Source: a virus
Length of the DNA stretch: 64,000 nt
Direction: 5' to 3' (one strand)
IMG/VR virus record: IMGVR_UViG_3300017929_000004
Location: 5,566 to 69,565 of that record
Positions 695 through 34,779 of the stretch are shown here, one piece after another. Each line of letters starts with the position of its first letter. The stretch's first letter is position 1. Under the pieces are notes generated by a model. The model was given only the letters and a program-made list of their open reading frames with translations, did not search any database and had not been told where the DNA came from. The translations under genes and the position numbers were made by a program.

Positions 695-1213
695 CTATTC
701 GACATGACTCCAAGTCCTTCGTTTCCTAACAAGATAGATTGCTGCCGGAGTCACTCTGTATTTCCTTGCCAAGGAAATTCCAGTCTCAGGACTTACTCGG
801 ATTTCTCTTACCACTTCATCTGTCAATTTAGATCCAAAACGATTTTCTCCAAGATGGATAAGACCGTTACGACGAGCATGGAGAACATTTTCGGAATGAG
901 TAAGATATTCAAGGTTATCTGCACGATTATCGGTTTTTGGTTCGTGAATGTGGTTAACCTCAAATCCATATGGGCACGGGCCAAGGAATGCTTTTGCCAC
1001 GAGGACGTGTACCCTCCTCGGGAAACTCCTCCCATCCCTTCTAAGAACAACGCCGAAGTATCCTCTGTCATCAGGGCTAGGTTTCAGAATTTTCCCAATC
1101 CTTGTAGTGGGGGCGGGACGAGATCGTCGTATTCTTCCCAAATTGGAAACCTCGTAGGAGTTGAAGCAAGGAATCTCCTTCCAGATTTCAGTGGTAGAAT
1201 TGATTTCAGGCAT
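695..1213 (-). CDS. NUMOD4-HNH homing endonuclease
   Basis: EIWKEIP..YEVSNLGRIR (NUMOD4), HVLVAKAF, VNH...DNRADNLEYLTHSENVLHA (HNH), C-terminal HTH-like tail; lower GC than flanks. Confidence 0.92.
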   Translation of the reverse strand: MPEINSTTEIWKEIPCFNSYEVSNLGRIRRSRPAPTTRIGKILKPSPDDRGYFGVVLRRDGRSFPRRVHVLVAKAFLGPCPYGFEVNHIHEPKTDNRADNLEYLTHSENVLHARRNGLIHLGENRFGSKLTDEVVREIRVSPETGISLARKYRVTPAAIYLVRKRRTWSHVE

Positions 1214-1288
1214 GATGGCTCCCAGTATGAGTCGTTGTGTTCAGGGCCGCAGGCGCGCGGAAACGCTTCTGCGGCTCGATTAGTATAA
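704..1288 (+). other. Sense-strand ORF covering the antisense HNH (possible filler ORF)
   Basis: AGGAGG at 686-691, ATG at 704, stop-free to 1288, 17 nt before the next gene; no recognisable domain. Confidence 0.35.
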
Positions 1289-3276: not shown

Positions 3277-3681
3277 TCACCTCCTGTTCCTGTTGCCCTC
3301 CTCTTCGATCCAAGCCTTAGCCTCGCTGATCGTGTTGAACCATCGCCTGCGGGGCGTCGCACAGTAGCAGACGGCGTGGACCTTTGGTCCCTCAGCGGAA
3401 TAGTCCGGCCCGTGGCTGTAGGTGAGATAATTCCCCACACTTGAGCGCTCGCGCCAAGCTCCGAGGTTCTCGTCAAATATCGGCGTGTTGGTGTCGTTGT
3501 ACTCTCCAGAAATCCACTTGCTGGCATTGTACTCCTCGCACAGTCTGAAGAGCCAGCCGCGATCACTGGAAGCCCATTCGTCGCTACCTTCTGGTGCAGC
3601 GGCTCGGAATTCCGCCCAAACGGTTTGACGCAAGTCTCCTTGAATCGGTCCTAACTCGATTTCGCGTTGCTCTGTGAACAT
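3277..3681 (-). CDS. Hypothetical protein
   Basis: GAGGAGGT RBS; fits the operon. Confidence 0.65.
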   Translation of the reverse strand: MFTEQREIELGPIQGDLRQTVWAEFRAAAPEGSDEWASSDRGWLFRLCEEYNASKWISGEYNDTNTPIFDENLGAWRERSSVGNYLTYSHGPDYSAEGPKVHAVCYCATPRRRWFNTISEAKAWIEEEGNRNRR

Positions 3682-3693
3682 AATCAAACCTCC

Positions 3694-5943
3694 TCAGAAT
3701 AGGCGAGTTTGGCCGCTCGCCTCGGTGTCGTGGAATAGCGGCGCGCGGCGCTCGAGTTCGCCAGCCTTTGACGTGATGTCCTTCGGCGGTCGGTTGAACT
3801 GTTCGGTAAGGTTCTGGCCGGCGCGTTGCGCCGCGACCTTCTTCTGCTCCTCGATGTGCGGCGCCATGCTTGGAAGGGGCTGGGCGCGTTGGCCTATCGG
3901 CCGATTGTCGACGTCTGGAGTAGCCAAGAAGATTCCCTTCCCAAAGTCGGGAGGCGCGGCGGTGGGCTGCGGGTCGGGCTCGTCGTCCTCGGGGTCGGCG
4001 TCCATCACCAGGAGCACGGTATTAACTCCCGTACCAGACTCTTTGAACGTGTCGGGCGGTAGGACTTCCCATTCTCCGCCCGCCTCGTCGACGAGGGGTT
4101 TTAGCTGCTCGTTCTGGCGCGGACCATTGGCGCAGATGGCCACGAGGCGCCCGCCTGGGCGAAGCATGGTCAGGGCGTGCTTGATATGTTTTATGTCCTC
4201 GCCGTTGGCAAAGGGCGGATTCATCAAAATGAAGTCAAAACCCGTCTGGTCGACGCACTCGAGAAAATCAGAGCAACGAACCTTCACGGCTGGCCACCTT
4301 CGGCGCAACTCCTCGGCTAGGGTTGGGTTAATTTCTATGGCGTGGATCTCGCCCGCGTAGGTAAAAATCTCATTGATAATTGCGCCCGTGCCAGCGCTGG
4401 GCTCGAGGATTCTAAGGGAAGACTCAGCGAAAGGCATTCCAGCAAGTTCCACCATGCGGCGGGCGAGGGCGGGCGGGGTCGGGAATAACTGAGGCGCGCT
4501 TACCACCTTAACCCCTGCTTTCAGGGTCTCGCGCATGGCGTCAAAGGCTTCGGCCTGCGGCTCTACGGTCGGTTCTTTCCATTCGCGCTCGACGGGCTCC
4601 CTGGTGGGTGCCTGTATCTTTGGCGCGGGCTCTGCGGGCGTCGCCTTCGGTGCTGGCGGGTCGACGCGCTTCGCGTCCTCGATGTAAACCAAAACGCTGT
4701 TATAGCCTCCAACAAACATCCCGGACCTTACGCGGTGCTCGCCGTACTTGTCGCTTGCGGGTACAATCCGACTGCCTTTCATGTCGTGATACTTCTTATC
4801 CCACGTCGCGCGACTGACGTGGTGAAAGCCTTCGCCGGGGTAATTGCACATTGGCGGAAGTTTGACAGCGGCCTTGACGGCCTGCGCTTGCTGCTCCGTC
4901 GGTGGCTGATAGTCTCGAATCTCCTCGATGCTGACGACTTTGCAATACCGCGCGTTCGTCGATACGCTGACGATTTTCCCGTCCTTCCGGTTGATGCGTA
5001 GGATCGTAACCCACTCGCCGCGGTCGCGCATGACGCGCCCGCCTAGCTGGATGTCGACCCGATCTGCGGCGAGCCCGCCGGCCTCCGCCAACATGGCGCG
5101 TTCGTACTCTAGGCGGTTTCCGATATGCTGTAACCAGCGGTCGCACCATGCAATAGTGCCACGGTAGGAGGGCAAGGCAAGGTCGCGTGCCTGCTCCGGC
5201 GTTATGATCCCATCGTGTAGTGCGCTCCATAGGCTCATTTCGCCTTCGTATTGGGACGCGGGCACCTCGCGCGGGTACTCGGCCAGCGTAAAGCATTTTG
5301 ACAAGTGATTGTAATTGGCTATGAGTTCGGCGCGCTCTTGGGTGAGTCCCTCGGCGCTCCATTGCTTGATGCCCGTTTCGCATTTGGCTTTGTCGCGTTC
5401 GCGGCTGCGCTGGTCGGCATCGAGTCCCTTGATTCTGCGGGCGCGCACGTCGGCGCGCTCCTTGTACTTCGCGTGTCGGATGGCGCCGGCGGCGCGCTCC
5501 TTCCAGTAGCAAGATTGCTCCCACATCTTAATGGATCGCCGCATCCCGTTCTCGATGCGTTCGGCGTCCTTGCGGGCGTGCTTCTCGCTGTGATGGCCAA
5601 CTAAAATCGGCTGGCCCAGCGGAATATTATCCGCAATGGCAGAAACGGCCTTCCGGGCCTGATCGGCGTCTTTGGCGCGGTGCTGGCTGTAATCGCTGAA
5701 CCGGTCGGCGCGCTCCTCGGCGCGGTCGACGAGCGTCGTGTCCTCGTCGCCAATCTCTCCGGCTAACTCTATCAAGAGGTCCTCGCGGCTTGGGGTCCAC
5801 ATCGGGGCGACGAAAAAGCCTTGTTTCGGTGCCCATATGAAGCCCGCAGCCTTGACGCGGGCGTAAGTCTCCGAGTCGAGCCGAGAGACGGAATACAAAC
5901 GGAGTTTGTTATCCTCGGGTGAATAAGTCGCGGTGTAGATCAT
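3694..5943 (-). CDS. DUF3560-domain protein fused to an N6-adenine DNA methyltransferase
   Basis: TATYSPEDNKLRLY and GQPILVGHHSEKHARKD (DUF3560); ILEPSAGTG (motif I) and DFILMNPPF (motif IV). Confidence 0.88.
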   Translation of the reverse strand: MIYTATYSPEDNKLRLYSVSRLDSETYARVKAAGFIWAPKQGFFVAPMWTPSREDLLIELAGEIGDEDTTLVDRAEERADRFSDYSQHRAKDADQARKAVSAIADNIPLGQPILVGHHSEKHARKDAERIENGMRRSIKMWEQSCYWKERAAGAIRHAKYKERADVRARRIKGLDADQRSRERDKAKCETGIKQWSAEGLTQERAELIANYNHLSKCFTLAEYPREVPASQYEGEMSLWSALHDGIITPEQARDLALPSYRGTIAWCDRWLQHIGNRLEYERAMLAEAGGLAADRVDIQLGGRVMRDRGEWVTILRINRKDGKIVSVSTNARYCKVVSIEEIRDYQPPTEQQAQAVKAAVKLPPMCNYPGEGFHHVSRATWDKKYHDMKGSRIVPASDKYGEHRVRSGMFVGGYNSVLVYIEDAKRVDPPAPKATPAEPAPKIQAPTREPVEREWKEPTVEPQAEAFDAMRETLKAGVKVVSAPQLFPTPPALARRMVELAGMPFAESSLRILEPSAGTGAIINEIFTYAGEIHAIEINPTLAEELRRRWPAVKVRCSDFLECVDQTGFDFILMNPPFANGEDIKHIKHALTMLRPGGRLVAICANGPRQNEQLKPLVDEAGGEWEVLPPDTFKESGTGVNTVLLVMDADPEDDEPDPQPTAAPPDFGKGIFLATPDVDNRPIGQRAQPLPSMAPHIEEQKKVAAQRAGQNLTEQFNRPPKDITSKAGELERRAPLFHDTEASGQTRLF

Positions 5944-8855: not shown

Positions 8856-9243
8856 TCTAATTCTGGGGGCTCGCCGCAGATAGTTGGCCCTCGACGTGCG
8901 AGGAGCCTGCAACTGGGTGGAGGTTCGGCGCCAGGTCCGCCGCTCGCATCCTTATCTTATGCGCGCCTCCTGGGCGGTCCCTTCGGGGCGGATGGCTCGC
9001 TGCGGGCGACCGGCGCCACCCCATCTGGAGGACCGCGACACCTTCCCCGTACTCCGCGACCGCGCCGCTCCCGCCGCGCGCGCCCAAGGCTCTCCCCCCG
9101 CCCGCCGCCGCGCGGTTTATTTTTTCACTGAGGACAGCGCCCTATCTCTAAATCGGAATTGAATTTTTGAAAAAAGGGGGTGATTTTTTCAAGTCAAAGA
9201 AAAGGAAGGAAATAAAAAGCGGGCAAAAACCAGGAGAATTCCC

Positions 9244-9271
9244 TTGACATCAAGAAAAATCAGAGTAATCT
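9244..9271 (+). promoter_or_regulatory. Sigma70-type promoter (rightward), probably leaderless
   Basis: TTGACA-16-TAATCT, ATG 6 nt downstream. Confidence 0.6.
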
Positions 9272-9277
9272 AGGTTT

Positions 9278-9736
9278 ATGAAAACATGCTACACCTGCAC
9301 GGCTGAAAAACCGGAGGCCGAGTTTTATAAAGGGCGGGGGGAGTGTAAGGTTTGTGCGAGGGCTCGGAATTTGAAGTGGCTGGCAGAGCATCCGGATAGG
9401 GGGGTGGAGTTAAAGAGGCGGTGGCGGAAGGAGCATAAGGCGGAAATCCGAGAGTACTACCGGAACTGGTACGACACAAAGGGGAGGAAACGGGCGAGAG
9501 ATTACGCAGAGGTGATTAAGTCTTGGGATGCGGCAAATCCCGAGAAGCGGGTGGCGCGTGACGCTTTGAGGGTAGCGATTCGATCAAGGAAGATAGTTCG
9601 TCCGAAGCTATGCCAAGGATGCAGAAAGGCGCTTAGGCTCCATGCGCACCATAGGGATTACATGAGGCCGCTTGAGGTGATTTGGCTGTGCGCGAGTTGC
9701 CACAAGCTGGAGCATACCAACAGAAAGACGAAGTGA
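9278..9736 (+). CDS. HNH-like endonuclease
   Basis: KTCYTC..CKVC; CQGC..HAHHRDY.RPLEVIWLCASCHKLEH. Confidence 0.8.
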   Translation: MKTCYTCTAEKPEAEFYKGRGECKVCARARNLKWLAEHPDRGVELKRRWRKEHKAEIREYYRNWYDTKGRKRARDYAEVIKSWDAANPEKRVARDALRVAIRSRKIVRPKLCQGCRKALRLHAHHRDYMRPLEVIWLCASCHKLEHTNRKTK

Positions 9737-9743
9737 GCAGCTT

Positions 9744-11966
9744 ATGGGGAGTGGAAAGGTAAGCGAGATGAGCGAGGGGCTGGACGCGGTTGAATGGCGG
9801 GGTTGTTACGGTGGGGTGCGGGGGGACTTGTTCACGCGGGAGAGCAATGCGCATCCAGCGAAGATGGCGGTGGGGCTGTGCTACCGGATATTCGGGTACA
9901 TGGAAGAGCGGGGGTGGGTGAATAAGGAGACTCAAATAGTTGTTGACGAACTAGGATTACATCACCTAAAATCTCTATATGACCACTGCACTCATCTGTC
10001 CTACATGCCTGAAACCATTCAAAGCCAAGGACACAGAACAGGTATACTGCTCTCAGAAATGCTGGTATCTTCGCAACGGCACCAAGGAAAAAACCTGCCA
10101 GGTCTGCCGAAAACCATTCAAAGCGAGCAATCGAAATCAGAAGTATTGCTCGATGAACTGCAGATCGGTTGTTCTGCTGGGCAACAAATTCGCGAAGGGG
10201 AATCCCCCGAACCACTCAACCTTCAAAGTAGGAGAGCATACCGGAAAGAATCATCCCCGCTGGAAGGGCGGGTGGAGGGAGCACCGAGGGCCTGGTTGGA
10301 AAAAACAGAAGTCTCTACTACGAGAGAGAGACAAGAACTGTCGAATCTGCAGGGTGAGTCCCATCCTTGCCCATCACATAATCCCTTACCGCGAGACCGG
10401 GAATTCTTCACTAACAAATCTCCTCGGCCTGTGTTTCAAATGCCATACCAAGATAGAGCACGAATACGAAAAGAAACTCAAAGAACTCCATGTAGTTTGG
10501 AGGAAGGACTTATTGAATCGTTGCCAACCTGCCCTCTCTGTCGAAATTTAATTCTTCCTACTGAAGGTTCAAGAATCCTGATTCAAGCCTCTAGAATATG
10601 TGAACCCATGGCGGGGATCGGGACGACGCTGGTGGTGGGGGCGAGTTTAGGGTACCAGACGGTGGGAGTGGAGTTGGAGCGGCATTTTCTGGAGATGGCG
10701 GACGCCAATGTGGAGAAGTTGATGGCGAAGATGCCGGGGGCGCCGCGACCGGTGGTGCTGGGAGGGGATGCGAGGAGTCTGATAAAGGTGTTGGCAGAGG
10801 CGCAGGTGGCTGGGGTGTTGACGAGCCCGCCGTACGCGGGAAACATTGGCGGGGACAGCGGGATAGACGCATCGCTAGAGAAAAAAGTCAGTGGGGTACA
10901 CGCGCAGCACAAGATCCGCCAAGACTACGATGGTGTAGTAGCGTCGCCACCCTATGCGGACCAGGATTTAACAGGGGCTCGGCAGTTCCGGTCGAGATTC
11001 GAGCCGGCCCGGCCCGAGGCGAGGGCGAACCCGCATGAGGGATACGACGGCGTGGTGTCGAGCCCGCCATTTTCCGACCAAGCTGCGGCGGGCGGGGGAT
11101 GCGGCATTGCCAAGCGGGGATACGGCCCGGGGGGAACGGATAAGGTAGGCGATCGGGCGTACATGGCGCGGACGCAGGGAACATCGGACGGTCAGATTGG
11201 GAATCTCAAGGATCCGGCCGGCGACATTGACGCGGTACTGACAAGTCCACCTTGGGAGCGTGGCGCCCGCGGCGGGCAGCAGGGATGGTCGGACCCGGAC
11301 AAGGCGGCGGCAGTCGCGGCGGAGAAGTATAAGGACGGCAGCCGGAGGGGGCATCGCGCGTCTGCGGAGGCGATTGCGGCTCAGATGCGGCGCGACGAGA
11401 AACGAGTCTATGGCGAGAGTGAGGGGCAGATTGCAAACCTTCCATTCGGCATGATCGATGCTGCTTTAAGCAGCCCGCCCTATGAGGCAAGCTCGCAGTG
11501 CCAGGACAAGAACTTTAGGAGAGACGACCGTTTTAGGGAAGGAGATTGGCACCAACAAAAAAGGAATAATCCTAACTTCCCAGAATCCCCTTCCTCTGAT
11601 GGTCAAATAGGAAAAGAGCGTGGAGACACCTACCTAAGCGCCATGCTCGCCGTGTACCGCGAACTCCACGCCGTGCTCAAACCCGGGGGCGTCTGCGCCC
11701 TGGTCACCAAGAACCCCGTGAAAAATGGCGCTATCCGCCGCCTGGACGAGGACACGATTCGGCTCATGGAAGCCGCAGGCTTCACGCTCATCGAGCGCAA
11801 GCACGCGATGCTCTCCGAAGACCTTGGCGAGCAGATGACGATGGACGGTGGCATCAAGAAAATCCAGCGCGTGCGCATGAGTTTCTTCAAGCGCCTGCAC
11901 GTCCGGAAGTACCCGGAACTTGCCGTCCTATGGGAAGACGTTTTGTTTTTCAGGAGCGCGTTATGA
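9744..11966 (+). CDS. Amino-DNA methyltransferase with five SPP(Y/F/W) repeats and an in-frame ~219-codon insertion
   Basis: HPAKM, PMAGIGTT (motif I), GVELE, five xSPPx motifs, VYRELHAVLKPGGVCALV. Confidence 0.8.
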   Translation: MGSGKVSEMSEGLDAVEWRGCYGGVRGDLFTRESNAHPAKMAVGLCYRIFGYMEERGWVNKETQIVVDELGLHHLKSLYDHCTHLSYMPETIQSQGHRTGILLSEMLVSSQRHQGKNLPGLPKTIQSEQSKSEVLLDELQIGCSAGQQIREGESPEPLNLQSRRAYRKESSPLEGRVEGAPRAWLEKTEVSTTRERQELSNLQGESHPCPSHNPLPRDREFFTNKSPRPVFQMPYQDRARIRKETQRTPCSLEEGLIESLPTCPLCRNLILPTEGSRILIQASRICEPMAGIGTTLVVGASLGYQTVGVELERHFLEMADANVEKLMAKMPGAPRPVVLGGDARSLIKVLAEAQVAGVLTSPPYAGNIGGDSGIDASLEKKVSGVHAQHKIRQDYDGVVASPPYADQDLTGARQFRSRFEPARPEARANPHEGYDGVVSSPPFSDQAAAGGGCGIAKRGYGPGGTDKVGDRAYMARTQGTSDGQIGNLKDPAGDIDAVLTSPPWERGARGGQQGWSDPDKAAAVAAEKYKDGSRRGHRASAEAIAAQMRRDEKRVYGESEGQIANLPFGMIDAALSSPPYEASSQCQDKNFRRDDRFREGDWHQQKRNNPNFPESPSSDGQIGKERGDTYLSAMLAVYRELHAVLKPGGVCALVTKNPVKNGAIRRLDEDTIRLMEAAGFTLIERKHAMLSEDLGEQMTMDGGIKKIQRVRMSFFKRLHVRKYPELAVLWEDVLFFRSAL
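9943..9972 (+). promoter_or_regulatory. Internal promoter of the nested HNH
   Basis: TTGACG-18-TAAAAT, ATG 9979 six nt downstream. Confidence 0.6.
9979..10551 (+). CDS. HNH endonuclease nested (+1 frame) inside the methyltransferase ORF
   Basis: Two CxxC..F..YCSxxC repeats, NHPRWKGG, CRIC..AHHIIPY..NLLGLCFKCH. Confidence 0.88.
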   Translation: MTTALICPTCLKPFKAKDTEQVYCSQKCWYLRNGTKEKTCQVCRKPFKASNRNQKYCSMNCRSVVLLGNKFAKGNPPNHSTFKVGEHTGKNHPRWKGGWREHRGPGWKKQKSLLRERDKNCRICRVSPILAHHIIPYRETGNSSLTNLLGLCFKCHTKIEHEYEKKLKELHVVWRKDLLNRCQPALSVEI

Positions 11967-12178
11967 GTGAAGTTGGCGAGTACACAATCACTCGGGACGG
12001 CGACCGCTACGGGTCGCTCGGGTCGGACTTCCCCGACGTGCTGACCGTCGTCGGGACGCGCGAGCAGGCGCTACGCTTGGCGAACTACCTGTCGAATTAC
12101 TATGTGGGGTGCGACCTTCTGTTCCGCGTCGAAGGCACGACGGAGGGCGAGTACTATGCGGAGGACGTGCAGATATGA
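11963..12178 (+). CDS. Hypothetical protein
   Basis: ATGA overlap, AGGAG RBS. Confidence 0.6.
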   Translation: MSEVGEYTITRDGDRYGSLGSDFPDVLTVVGTREQALRLANYLSNYYVGCDLLFRVEGTTEGEYYAEDVQI

Positions 12179-12525
12179 AATTGAAGGCGCGCGACATCGT
12201 TCCGGGTTGGCCGCGAGGACGATCAACGGAGAATTTTCGGGGCGAATCTCCGGGAGCGAATCGGCGGTACCACGCCAAGCAGGCGGCGATGGTCGAGAAG
12301 TTTAGGTGCCGAGAACTCACCGTCCTCTATCCGCTGGACGGTCTACGCTGGTACCGTGGCTCGTTCTGGGGGCTGCGCTGCGGGCTCTGTGGAGCCGAGT
12401 GGAAGGACGGCAATGCGCCAACCTGCGCTTGCCCACCACATACCGTCATCGGCTTTGGGTACGACGCCGTGCTGAAAACGTGGAGGGGTGTCCTCCGGTC
12501 GGAAGCAGCGAACTTCAATTTCTAG
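12175..12525 (+). CDS. Hypothetical protein
   Basis: ATGA overlap; TAG stop overlaps the palindrome. Confidence 0.6.
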   Translation: MKLKARDIVPGWPRGRSTENFRGESPGANRRYHAKQAAMVEKFRCRELTVLYPLDGLRWYRGSFWGLRCGLCGAEWKDGNAPTCACPPHTVIGFGYDAVLKTWRGVLRSEAANFNF

Positions 12526-32806: not shown

Positions 32807-33808
32807 ATGGCTGAGACGTTTCTGAGCGTTTGGCGCTCCGTACTGCAATACAACAGAAGGGTCCCGGCGACGCTTTGCAGGACATGGGTACGCCAGCGCT
32901 ACGAGCAGATTCTCGACCGTCGCATGTGGAGTTTTCAGTGGGGCCATGGCTGCTGGAACGTCAAGGCACCGATTACCGGCAACGCGACCATCGTCGCAGG
33001 TTCGAACGTTTTGACCTTCGGCGCGGGTGTGCTTCCAGGCGACAAGAGGATCGTGGGTTGGGAAGTAATGATCAACGGGCAGATTCCGTACTACATGGTC
33101 GTGGATGCCGACGCGACGACGGTCACTCTCGACCGAATTTGCGTCGAGACCTCAGCGTCGAACGTGCCGTGCCAAATCAGCATGGTTTACTTCATGTCGG
33201 AGCAGCCCGACTTCGAGAAGATGATTGCCATCGTTGATCGCCAAAACAACTGGCAGTTCCGGCTGAACGTGTCCATCGAAGAGATGGATAACGACGACCC
33301 GCAGCGTTCGACGGTCTCCCCGCCGACGCGCATGGTGCCCCTGGGGTTCAACGACCAGTACCTCGCCATGATTCCCGACAGTGTGACGGACTGCTACGGA
33401 CAGGAAAACGATTCGCAGTCGCAACCGTTCTTTGAGACTTGGCCCAGGGCGAGCACCGCGCAACCTTATCCTTATGTGTACAAGAGGAAGACGCCGAGCC
33501 TTGCGAACGATGGCGACCCCCTGCCGGGGTTTATCCGCGGGCGCGCGTTGTTCGAAGGGGCGCTTGCCGACCTGTGCAGTTGGCCCGGAACGCAGACGAA
33601 CCCTAACCCGGCGAATCCCGTGCAGGCCAACGTGCATGAGCGGAAATTTGAGGACGCGGTGTTCGACATGATTAACCGCGACGAGCAAGTGTCGCTGCGG
33701 TCGCTGACATGGGCGCGAAGCTACCGTAACTTCGCGTTTGCGGAGTTAGAGAGCGCCCGGTATCGTCAAAGTCACGTTGACGCGTCGCTGGTGCTGCAGA
33801 AATTCTAA
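32807..33808 (+). CDS. Putative head-tail adaptor protein
   Basis: Position; RRMWSF and ETWP..YPYVY motifs. Confidence 0.6.
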   Translation: MAETFLSVWRSVLQYNRRVPATLCRTWVRQRYEQILDRRMWSFQWGHGCWNVKAPITGNATIVAGSNVLTFGAGVLPGDKRIVGWEVMINGQIPYYMVVDADATTVTLDRICVETSASNVPCQISMVYFMSEQPDFEKMIAIVDRQNNWQFRLNVSIEEMDNDDPQRSTVSPPTRMVPLGFNDQYLAMIPDSVTDCYGQENDSQSQPFFETWPRASTAQPYPYVYKRKTPSLANDGDPLPGFIRGRALFEGALADLCSWPGTQTNPNPANPVQANVHERKFEDAVFDMINRDEQVSLRSLTWARSYRNFAFAELESARYRQSHVDASLVLQKF

Positions 33809-34749
33809 TGACTAGGCTTCGCCAAATTCGCTTTGCGCTTTGCCTCGCGGCGCTGGTATGTCTCCCAAGCGTGGCAGTTAGGGCAAAGAACTTGAAGGTT
33901 GGAGCGTTCGTTATTCCAGGGGACTCCATCCTTGTGGTCAACTTGGAGAACTTCGGGATGCTCTCTCCATCCGCAGATTTCACAGCATTCAAGCCGCCCA
34001 GCCTGCTTCATGGTGTCCCTGTATCCGTTTTTTCTTCTGCCGCCTCTGGATCGTTGGGAACAGCGATTGGAGCAGTACTTCGTCGTGCTTTTACTTATAG
34101 TGGCAGACTCGTATGGATTTCCGCAAACTTGGCAGACATAAGTTCTAAACTGCTTGGAAGCCCAAGATCCCTTGCATTCATTGGAACAAAAATTCGAAGT
34201 GCGTCCTGGCTGAACCTGCCTACGATAAATGATGCCACAATGCTTGCAGGTGCGTTTGATACTCAGAGTGCTGGCTGCTCGTCTCGCGATGTCCGTACAC
34301 TTACGACTGCACCACTTCCTAGTTTCGAGTTGGCAAGCAGGGACATGGAAGGAGTTTCCGCAGATTGGGCATGTGATGTCTCCCCCAGTCTTTTGGGGTC
34401 GGCAAGCCCTGTCCTTTTTAGAACTAACGCATTTTCTGCAGATGCTAGGAGATCCGCCGTGCAGAGCGGAACTATCCTTCCGGCGCCTGAAGTGGGAACC
34501 ACACTGCGAGCAGATTACGTCTATGGACCATACAAGTTTCTTGTAACAAGACTTGGAGCAGCAGATCGAGACTGTCGCTCGAAGAGGGCTGACCGTGTAG
34601 GAGCGACCACAGAAAGAGCAGGACTTGGTGACTCTATTCGACATCCGATGGGCATAGGAGCAGGCGATGGAACAGAATCTCGCCACTCCATTTTTCCTTG
34701 GGCCTGCACGAAACTCTTTTTTGCACCATTCACAGGGTTTGATTTCCAT
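33805..34749 (-). CDS. HNH endonuclease with multiple Zn-finger repeats, antisense to the late operon
   Basis: About six CxxC..CSxxC repeats; CEICG..LQVDHKDG..NNERSNLQVLCPNCH. Confidence 0.9.
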   Translation of the reverse strand: MEIKPCEWCKKEFRAGPRKNGVARFCSIACSYAHRMSNRVTKSCSFCGRSYTVSPLRATVSICCSKSCYKKLVWSIDVICSQCGSHFRRRKDSSALHGGSPSICRKCVSSKKDRACRPQKTGGDITCPICGNSFHVPACQLETRKWCSRKCTDIARRAASTLSIKRTCKHCGIIYRRQVQPGRTSNFCSNECKGSWASKQFRTYVCQVCGNPYESATISKSTTKYCSNRCSQRSRGGRRKNGYRDTMKQAGRLECCEICGWREHPEVLQVDHKDGVPWNNERSNLQVLCPNCHAWETYQRREAKRKANLAKPSH

Positions 34750-34779
34750 GGCAATTTCACCTCGGAGGTAAGATCATGA
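33808..34779 (+). other. Sense-strand filler ORF over the antisense HNH, coupled at both ends
   Basis: TAATG overlap upstream and ATGA overlap downstream; 323 stop-free codons. Confidence 0.45.

Follow-up and report, generated by a model that had tools for sequence, protein, structure and literature searches.

The window analysed here is a 64,000-nucleotide (nt) stretch of the IMG/VR virus record IMGVR_UViG_3300017929_000004. It makes up most of this 69.6-kb record of an uncultivated virus, the completeness of which is estimated at 72%, and DNA of the phage was found in many peat and wetland metagenome runs, with no RNA run among those listed. In the window a DNA methyltransferase gene holds, within its S-adenosylmethionine (SAM)-binding motif I, a cassette that encodes an HNH endonuclease in another reading frame, and the methyltransferase frame stays open across the whole of the cassette. 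The features that make up this arrangement are given below, with protein lengths in amino acids (aa).

9744..11966, plus strand: DNA methyltransferase open reading frame (ORF), 740 aa, open straight across the insert
9948..10604, plus strand: inserted cassette of 657 nt (219 codons) that separates Asp from Pro in motif I (VVD / PMAGIGTT)
9979..10551, plus strand: gene for an HNH endonuclease of 190 aa, +1 with respect to the methyltransferase frame
9943..9972, plus strand: candidate sigma-70-like promoter site, TTGACG-18-TAAAAT, 10 of 12 consensus positions

The methyltransferase begins with an N-terminal part of 68 aa that contains the HPAKM helix and the beta-1 strand IVVD, the last codon of which ends at position 9947 (Asp68). 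The insert follows, and beyond it come motif I (PMAGIGTT, starting at 10605 with Pro288), five SPP(Y/F/W) modules and, at the C-terminus, a match to Pfam N6_N4_Mtase (PF01555, E-value (E) of 1.7e-7). Residues 1-68 and 288-740 align to DNA methyltransferases from phages and metagenomes, a large family (358 matches, the best non-self match at 43% identity) the members of which have the SAM-binding motif I near the N-terminus, SPP(Y/F/W) modules in variable number and a C-terminal N6_N4_Mtase domain. All 37 invariant columns of the homologue alignment are retained by the window methyltransferase.

The nested gene encodes two CxxC...CSxxC zinc-ribbon units and then an HNH core. Its product matched Pfam HNH (PF01844) with 26.6 bits, above the cut-off of 21.4, and PHROG 1271 'HNH endonuclease' with E=3.6e-20. 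The closest phage relative is a nested HNH in cyanophage S-EIVl, with 30% identity across 153 aa. A tblastn search of phage genomes also matched mycobacteriophage methyltransferase genes, and only the HNH core aligned with these copies (39% over 53 aa, E 4e-5 to 1e-4). Among the viral contigs, relatives of the HNH were found at a single locus, where the gene is free-standing beside a terminase gene and not nested; a free-standing HNH is also annotated in haloarchaeal virus HJTV-4, and a 132-aa HNH fragment is 99% identical to the window HNH. A fusion of the methyltransferase N-terminus to the HNH through a frameshift was ruled out by a TAA three codons before the HNH ATG in the HNH frame.

The original prediction, which had been made from the letters of the window, described a 740-aa stop-free methyltransferase frame with a 190-aa HNH in the +1 frame and placed the limits of the insert at 9948 and 10604. 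ORF, Pfam and PHROG analyses confirmed the former, and comparison with insert-free homologues by alignment, by motif spacing and at 47 viral loci confirmed the latter. In the homologues inspected the sequence (I/V)(L/V)DPMAGIGTT is unbroken. The motif spacing was examined in 122 proteins, 57 of which fitted both motif patterns. Between HPAK and the DP of motif I there are 25-35 aa in 56 of the 57, and 30 + 219 in the window. The odd spacing of the 57th protein (P0060) was a pattern mis-hit, as its sequence has the motif at the normal place. The viral-contig comparison covered 80 related loci, searched by tblastn with N-side and C-side queries; both sides were matched in 47 of the 80, and the projected gap at the insert site was 0, -3 or -12 nt in every one of these. 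An insert at the VVD/PMAG site was found in 0 of the 47 viral loci and in none of the 120 proteins listed, so that the insert is unique at the motif I site among the sequences examined. One apparent long-insert case, an IMG/VR contig (L060, 2360-5334), was rejected: two paralogous methyltransferase genes of the family flank a 282-aa gene there, and there is no insert.

The junctions were also checked in metagenome DNA, in the contigs of the four runs with the lowest word share. Contigs bridging the left junction were present in three of the four runs (X19, X22 and X23) and contigs bridging the right junction in two (X23 and X24), in each case with at least 31 letters on both sides and no differences. 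The insert was carried in all four runs, the nearest homologue available for a comparison of presence and absence among close relatives being at 43% identity. No insert-free joint was seen in the contigs of these runs, which drop rare variants, and a single-base difference was observed elsewhere. One X19 contig starts exactly at 10605; the left junction is bridged in the same run, and we read no significance into this start.

The insert differs from its surroundings in composition. Its guanine-plus-cytosine (GC) content is 0.39-0.57 (48.5% overall) with a skew near or below zero, whereas the flanks have a GC content of 0.59-0.64 (about 62%) and a skew of +0.44 to +0.49, in agreement with the predicted contrast between a C/A-rich insert and G-rich flanks. 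A GC content of 48.5% between flanks of about 62% suggests recent arrival, which would suit an explanation in which a recent insertion killed the methyltransferase and the open frame is luck. The distribution of stop codons bears directly on this. The insert has 0 stops in the methyltransferase frame, 4 and 13 in the other plus-strand frames and 8-11 in the three reverse frames. When synonymous codons were permuted within the HNH gene and stops were counted in the methyltransferase frame, 6.3-6.5 stops were expected against the 0 observed, and zero stops were obtained in 3 of 20,000 shuffles and in 1 of 5,000. Avoidance of T-ending codons ahead of AA, AG or GA had been proposed, and none of the 35 T-ending HNH codons stands before one of the 57 codons that start in this way. 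As a genome control, windows of 190 codons were taken across the 12 large ORFs of the phage, and 70 of 7,235 were open in the same relative frame. The stop-free methyltransferase frame is more than chance, as the synonymous-shuffle check that accompanied the prediction had been designed to ask.

The same property was found in other nested HNH genes. In Violet gp57 the HNH lies in the +1 frame, and 0 stops were observed against 5.5 expected (P=8e-4). Cyanophage S-EIVl (L001, 2025-4565) has an annotated 846-aa terminase large subunit that holds an intein with clear N-terminal and C-terminal splicing blocks; an HNH in the +1 frame overprints the middle of this intein. Here 16.4 stops were expected and 0 observed, and 0 of 5,000 shuffles were stop-free. 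An IMG/VR contig (L075, 2501-4414) encodes a second, 637-aa member of the methyltransferase family of the window. Its HNH (193 aa, 3541..4122) is in the +2 frame, has an AGGAGG before its ATG and sits just before an ETYL-type motif, which is another site than that of the window; the host frame had 0 stops where 2.2 were expected (P=0.036). In none of the three cases tested for it was there a signal of selection towards hydrophilicity of the in-frame peptide, the Kyte-Doolittle mean and the hydrophobic fraction lying within the shuffles. The polar fraction of the in-frame peptide was slightly high (P 0.01-0.03), partly because stops are replaced.

These results leave a killed gene with a fortuitously open frame very improbable. 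About 1% of comparable phage windows are open by chance, which speaks for luck, but the shuffle probability is about 2e-4, and the property recurs in four independent nested HNH genes and in published cases. Furthermore, the length of the insert is an exact multiple of three and all invariant residues of the methyltransferase are kept.

Phage group I introns often carry HNH genes at conserved sites of conserved genes, and a cryptic self-splicing intron, with a core overlapping the HNH ORF, could remove the insert from the mRNA. The ends of the insert can pair in 10 of 11 positions (one of them G-U), as the original prediction had pointed out, but pairing of this extent was reached by 130 of 1,000 shuffles and is at chance level. 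An Rfam scan of positions 9000-12200, with E up to 10, gave three matches, all with E of at least 1.4 and none of them a group I or group II intron. The HNH ORF leaves only 31 + 53 nt (84 nt) of the insert uncovered, which agrees with the earlier statement that the flanks are too short for an intron core. The last base of the 5' exon is C and that of the insert is A, where the group I rule is a U before the 5' splice site and a G at the 3' end (rule cited in PMC11855218). The HNH is the only ORF in the insert, and neither the Domain V/VI RNA nor the reverse-transcriptase ORF expected of a group II intron was found. As a cryptic intron would moreover give no reason for the stop-free frame, we consider this explanation unlikely, and splicing of the insert is probably absent.

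The prediction had listed three mechanisms by which the methyltransferase could be made, namely tolerated read-through, ribosomal bypass and RNA excision. In the bypass of T4 gene 60, the take-off and landing codons are matched, a stop follows the take-off codon and the gap is about 50 nt. The insert does have matched GAA codons at 9948 and 10602, but the codon after the take-off GAA is CTA and not a stop, the gap would be 654 nt, and no open frame would be needed. The GAAC at both ends, which the prediction had noted, amounts to 4 nt only and is not beyond chance. Bypass between the two GAA codons is therefore extremely unlikely. Since bypass and RNA excision require neither an open frame nor a length of 3n, read-through is the only one of the three mechanisms that explains both, and it is the part of that proposal which we favour.

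An open frame and a length of 3n are also exactly what removal at the protein level would require. The in-frame peptide of the insert has no Hint or intein match in Pfam or PHROG, in line with the earlier report of no intein motifs, and no match to any other family of these databases. At the junctions (D/E...E/P) there is no Cys, Ser or Thr nucleophile and no terminal Asn. An AlphaFold2 (AF2) model of the 740-aa protein was built with 38 aligned sequences. Its predicted local distance difference test (pLDDT) values are 74-94 for residues 11-80, below 50 for residues 93-269 and 88-97 for residues 281-350. Foldseek with this model returned only generic SAM-methyltransferase matches (E 2.7e-5 and weaker) and nothing informative on the insert. 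Excision after translation by an unrecognised mechanism, self-catalysed or by a protease with ligation, would spare the enzyme an unremoved loop that seems harmful at the motif I site, and a relative of the HNH sits out of frame within a true intein in cyanophage S-EIVl. However, the insert starts and ends with Glu and is followed by Pro, none of them a known nucleophile, and its peptide is predicted to be unstructured. We regard protein-level excision as improbable.

The nested gene may have its own expression signals. The original prediction had included a promoter and a leaderless ATG for the HNH. The TTGACG-18-TAAAAT site is there, and its -10 hexamer ends 6 nt ahead of the HNH ATG with no Shine-Dalgarno sequence, a geometry that would fit a leaderless mRNA. 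A consensus scan of 3.6 kb gave 3 such promoter-like sites against 1.3 expected, and function as a promoter is only suggested by the match. The first five bases of the -35 hexamer belong to the host Val-Asp codons. Of 61 insert-free viral loci, 15 have TTGAC at this position too, and thus the target site itself can supply most of a -35 element.

An arrangement of this kind has been described in actinophages. The 'ShiLan domain' (PMC11855218; Arsenault, Gosselin and Gogarten 2025) consists of 202 aa inserted into an actinophage methylase at conserved residues. The host frame runs across it free of stops, another frame encodes a zinc-finger HNH, and signatures of an intron or intein are lacking. 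According to the same paper, the prediction for the in-frame peptide is a loop of low confidence and leaderless initiation is proposed, and the read-through reading was reached there as well. We think it probable that the window holds a 'hidden' homing-endonuclease cassette of the ShiLan type, through which the host frame is read and in which the open frame is kept by selection. A mobile 657-bp HNH element would have entered the SAM-binding motif I precisely at the junction of the Asp and Pro codons, and its HNH, read in the +1 frame, would most likely be expressed from the promoter-like site as a leaderless mRNA. The element would be neither an intron nor an intein. Instead it would be 'translationally transparent', with a length of 3n and with synonymous codons selected to keep the host frame free of stops. 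Ribosomes that start at the methyltransferase ATG would pass through the insert and make a 740-aa protein with a largely unstructured, hydrophilic insertion of 219 residues, which may retain methyltransferase activity. Translation would then reach the normal stop, which overlaps the start of the next gene.

Several points weigh against such a cassette. The insertion lies within the catalytic SAM-binding loop, between beta-1 and the glycine loop, and 219 residues are not obviously tolerable there. The argument for read-through is built on DNA sequence and a predicted model, and this model is weak evidence, with a mean pLDDT of 58; MAFFT placed the GDxILD of the homologues on the last six residues of the insert, which may have shaped it. 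The genome-based estimate, with about 1% of windows open, is weaker than the estimate from shuffles. The putative promoter is only a consensus match. Finally, no closely related insert-free allele was found (the best homologue is at 43% identity), so that mobility by homing is inferred from how the family behaves.

A further explanation takes account of the gene that follows the methyltransferase.

11963..12178, plus strand: downstream gene, its ATG overlapping the methyltransferase stop (ATGA), with AGGAG 6 nt upstream

A family search with this gene gave no match. A stop within the insert would end translation about 1.4-2 kb ahead of the ATGA junction. The open frame could thus be kept for the unstopped passage of host-strand ribosomes, by translational coupling and without polarity downstream, and not for the methyltransferase, which would then possibly be inactive; the anatomy would be the same. 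The overlap of the methyltransferase stop with the next ATG is as this explanation would have it. The two other HNH genes of the phage also favour it. Both are antisense to the surrounding operon and lie between genes with no host protein at stake, yet each is under an open host-strand ORF, and the selected trait may therefore be uninterrupted ribosome passage. The first (33805..34749, minus strand) encodes a 314-aa multi-zinc-ribbon HNH and lies between two plus-strand structural genes, under a 323-codon ORF (33808..34779, plus strand) whose start overlaps the stop of the gene upstream (TAATG) and whose end overlaps the start of the next one (ATGA). None of the 10 Leu and 35 Ser codons of this HNH gene is TTA, CTA or TCA (P about 0.01 with the codon usage of the phage), and only 3 of 5,759 windows of 314 codons in large ORFs are open likewise. 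The second (695..1213, minus strand) is a NUMOD4-HNH gene with a GC content of 45%, under an open ORF (641/704..1288, plus strand), and it too has no TTA, CTA or TCA codons. Family searches with the two covering ORFs, 33808..34779 and 641/704..1288, gave no match.

Other observations stand against this explanation. The 172-codon case at 695..1213 is not significant alone (633 of 7,463 windows), and codon-aligned antisense frames are often open through composition alone. Coupling is not strictly required downstream of the 33.8-kb HNH, where the next gene is provided with a GGAGG site of its own. Furthermore, the methyltransferase retains every family-invariant residue, as would be expected if it still works. 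We therefore hold selection for ribosome passage alone to be possible but doubtful, and the hidden cassette within a methyltransferase that may still work remains the reading that we prefer.

A second endonuclease gene lies next to the methyltransferase.

9278..9736, plus strand: upstream endonuclease gene, 152 aa, free-standing, HNH-type (CxxC...HH...CxxCH), directly 5' of the methyltransferase

Its product matched PHROG 2340 'endonuclease' (E=1.6e-28) and, weakly, Pfam HNH (10.4 bits); it is not a close relative of the nested HNH. A TTGACA-16-TAATCT site, a weaker consensus match than that of the nested gene, likewise stands 6 nt from the ATG. The spacer before the gene (9100-9280) is AT-rich, with a GC content of about 0.42, and contains a terminator-like hairpin (9104-9116), then a T run and then this site. 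From the upstream endonuclease gene through the first third of the methyltransferase gene (9300-10900) the GC skew is strongly positive (+0.3 to +0.5), with the insert as the sole interruption, and the methyltransferase gene is C-rich from about 11600. This pattern suggests a mosaic gene, or a module acquired along with the upstream endonuclease. The tandem SPP(Y/F/W) modules (10810-11640 in the window) number five in the window protein and differ in number among the homologues inspected (P0004-P0027). In the window protein the last of these modules (about 11480-11640) is encoded by a stretch of low GC content that the closest homologue does not have.

Compared with the ShiLan domain, the window has an insert of similar size (about 200 codons) at conserved methylase residues, an open host frame, a zinc-finger HNH in another frame and no signs of an intron or intein. 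It differs in the methyltransferase family, in which motif I comes first and multiple SPPY modules follow, and in its uncultivated peat phage lineage. The insert of the window is inside motif I, and the residue on its C-flank is Pro, whereas it is Thr or Ser in ShiLan. The window HNH starts with ATG and has a recognisable -35/-10 site, while the word 'promoter' does not occur in PMC11855218. The window HNH is only distantly related (39% over 53 aa to the mycobacteriophage copies) and is likely, from its sequence, to be an independent acquisition of the same lifestyle. Pacc40 gp60 represents a second methylase family with a hidden HNH; in phages Tiff81 and Sashimi, homologues of this HNH stand free, upstream of the methylase gene (PMC11855218, section 3.6). 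The window resembles it in having a nested out-of-frame endonuclease as well as an endonuclease gene directly upstream of the methylase (9278..9736). However, the two endonucleases of the window are not close relatives, and both are in one genome.

Inteins with an out-of-frame or antisense homing endonuclease have been reported for cyanobacterial dnaX (bioRxiv 10.64898/2026.09.14.751524) and for actinophages (bioRxiv 10.1101/2025.01.02.630785). As in the window, an endonuclease ORF overlies a host frame that has to remain free of stops, and the HNH of the S-EIVl terminase is of this type, also in the +1 frame. Their host frames, however, encode Hint splicing domains that remove the insert, and none was detected in the insert of the window. 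A more distant parallel is a free-standing homing endonuclease gene that splits its host gene in two, as mobE reportedly does in nrdA of Aeromonas phage Aeh1. Such genes and the window cassette have in common an endonuclease gene with its own expression signals (candidate ones in the window) within a conserved gene and without an intron or intein. In the mobE type a stop and a new start lead to two polypeptides, whereas the host frame of the window runs on unstopped, and no ribosome-binding site is evident for the ATG at 10608, after the insert. A further known class is that of group I introns with HNH ORFs, for example that of I-HmuI of phage SPO1. There too an HNH homing gene occupies a conserved site of a phage gene, but the window has no detectable intron core, its non-ORF flanks are too short and its host frame is open. 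The structure 1U3E is cited in PMC11855218.

The original prediction implied that the arrangement was new. This did not hold: the same arrangement was published in 2025 for actinophage methylases (PMC11855218), and the GenBank record of Mycobacterium phage Violet gp57 notes an 'HNH endonuclease domain out of frame'. The window is a further member of the group, outside the actinophages. Comparable cases from metagenomes may already be included in the GitHub survey that belongs to PMC11855218.

In the usual view, a homing endonuclease gene persists within a conserved gene by being concealed in a self-splicing intron or an intein. The hidden-HNH elements reported in 2025 point to a third possibility, in which there is no splicing and only a stop-free, in-frame passage for host ribosomes. 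If the improbable protein-level excision were nevertheless true, overprinted HNH cassettes such as those of the window, of L075 and of the ShiLan group would make a third self-removing class beside introns and inteins. The window extends the arrangement beyond the actinophages to another methyltransferase family, with L075 as the second case there, and it adds a quantified selection on the open frame, a clear candidate promoter and an insert site in the SAM-binding loop. An activity assay on a methyltransferase with this motif I insert could tell whether the idea of a 'tolerated loop' holds. With three 'covered' endonuclease genes in one genome, the phage also allows a test of whether it is the function of the host protein or uninterrupted translation that keeps the frames open.

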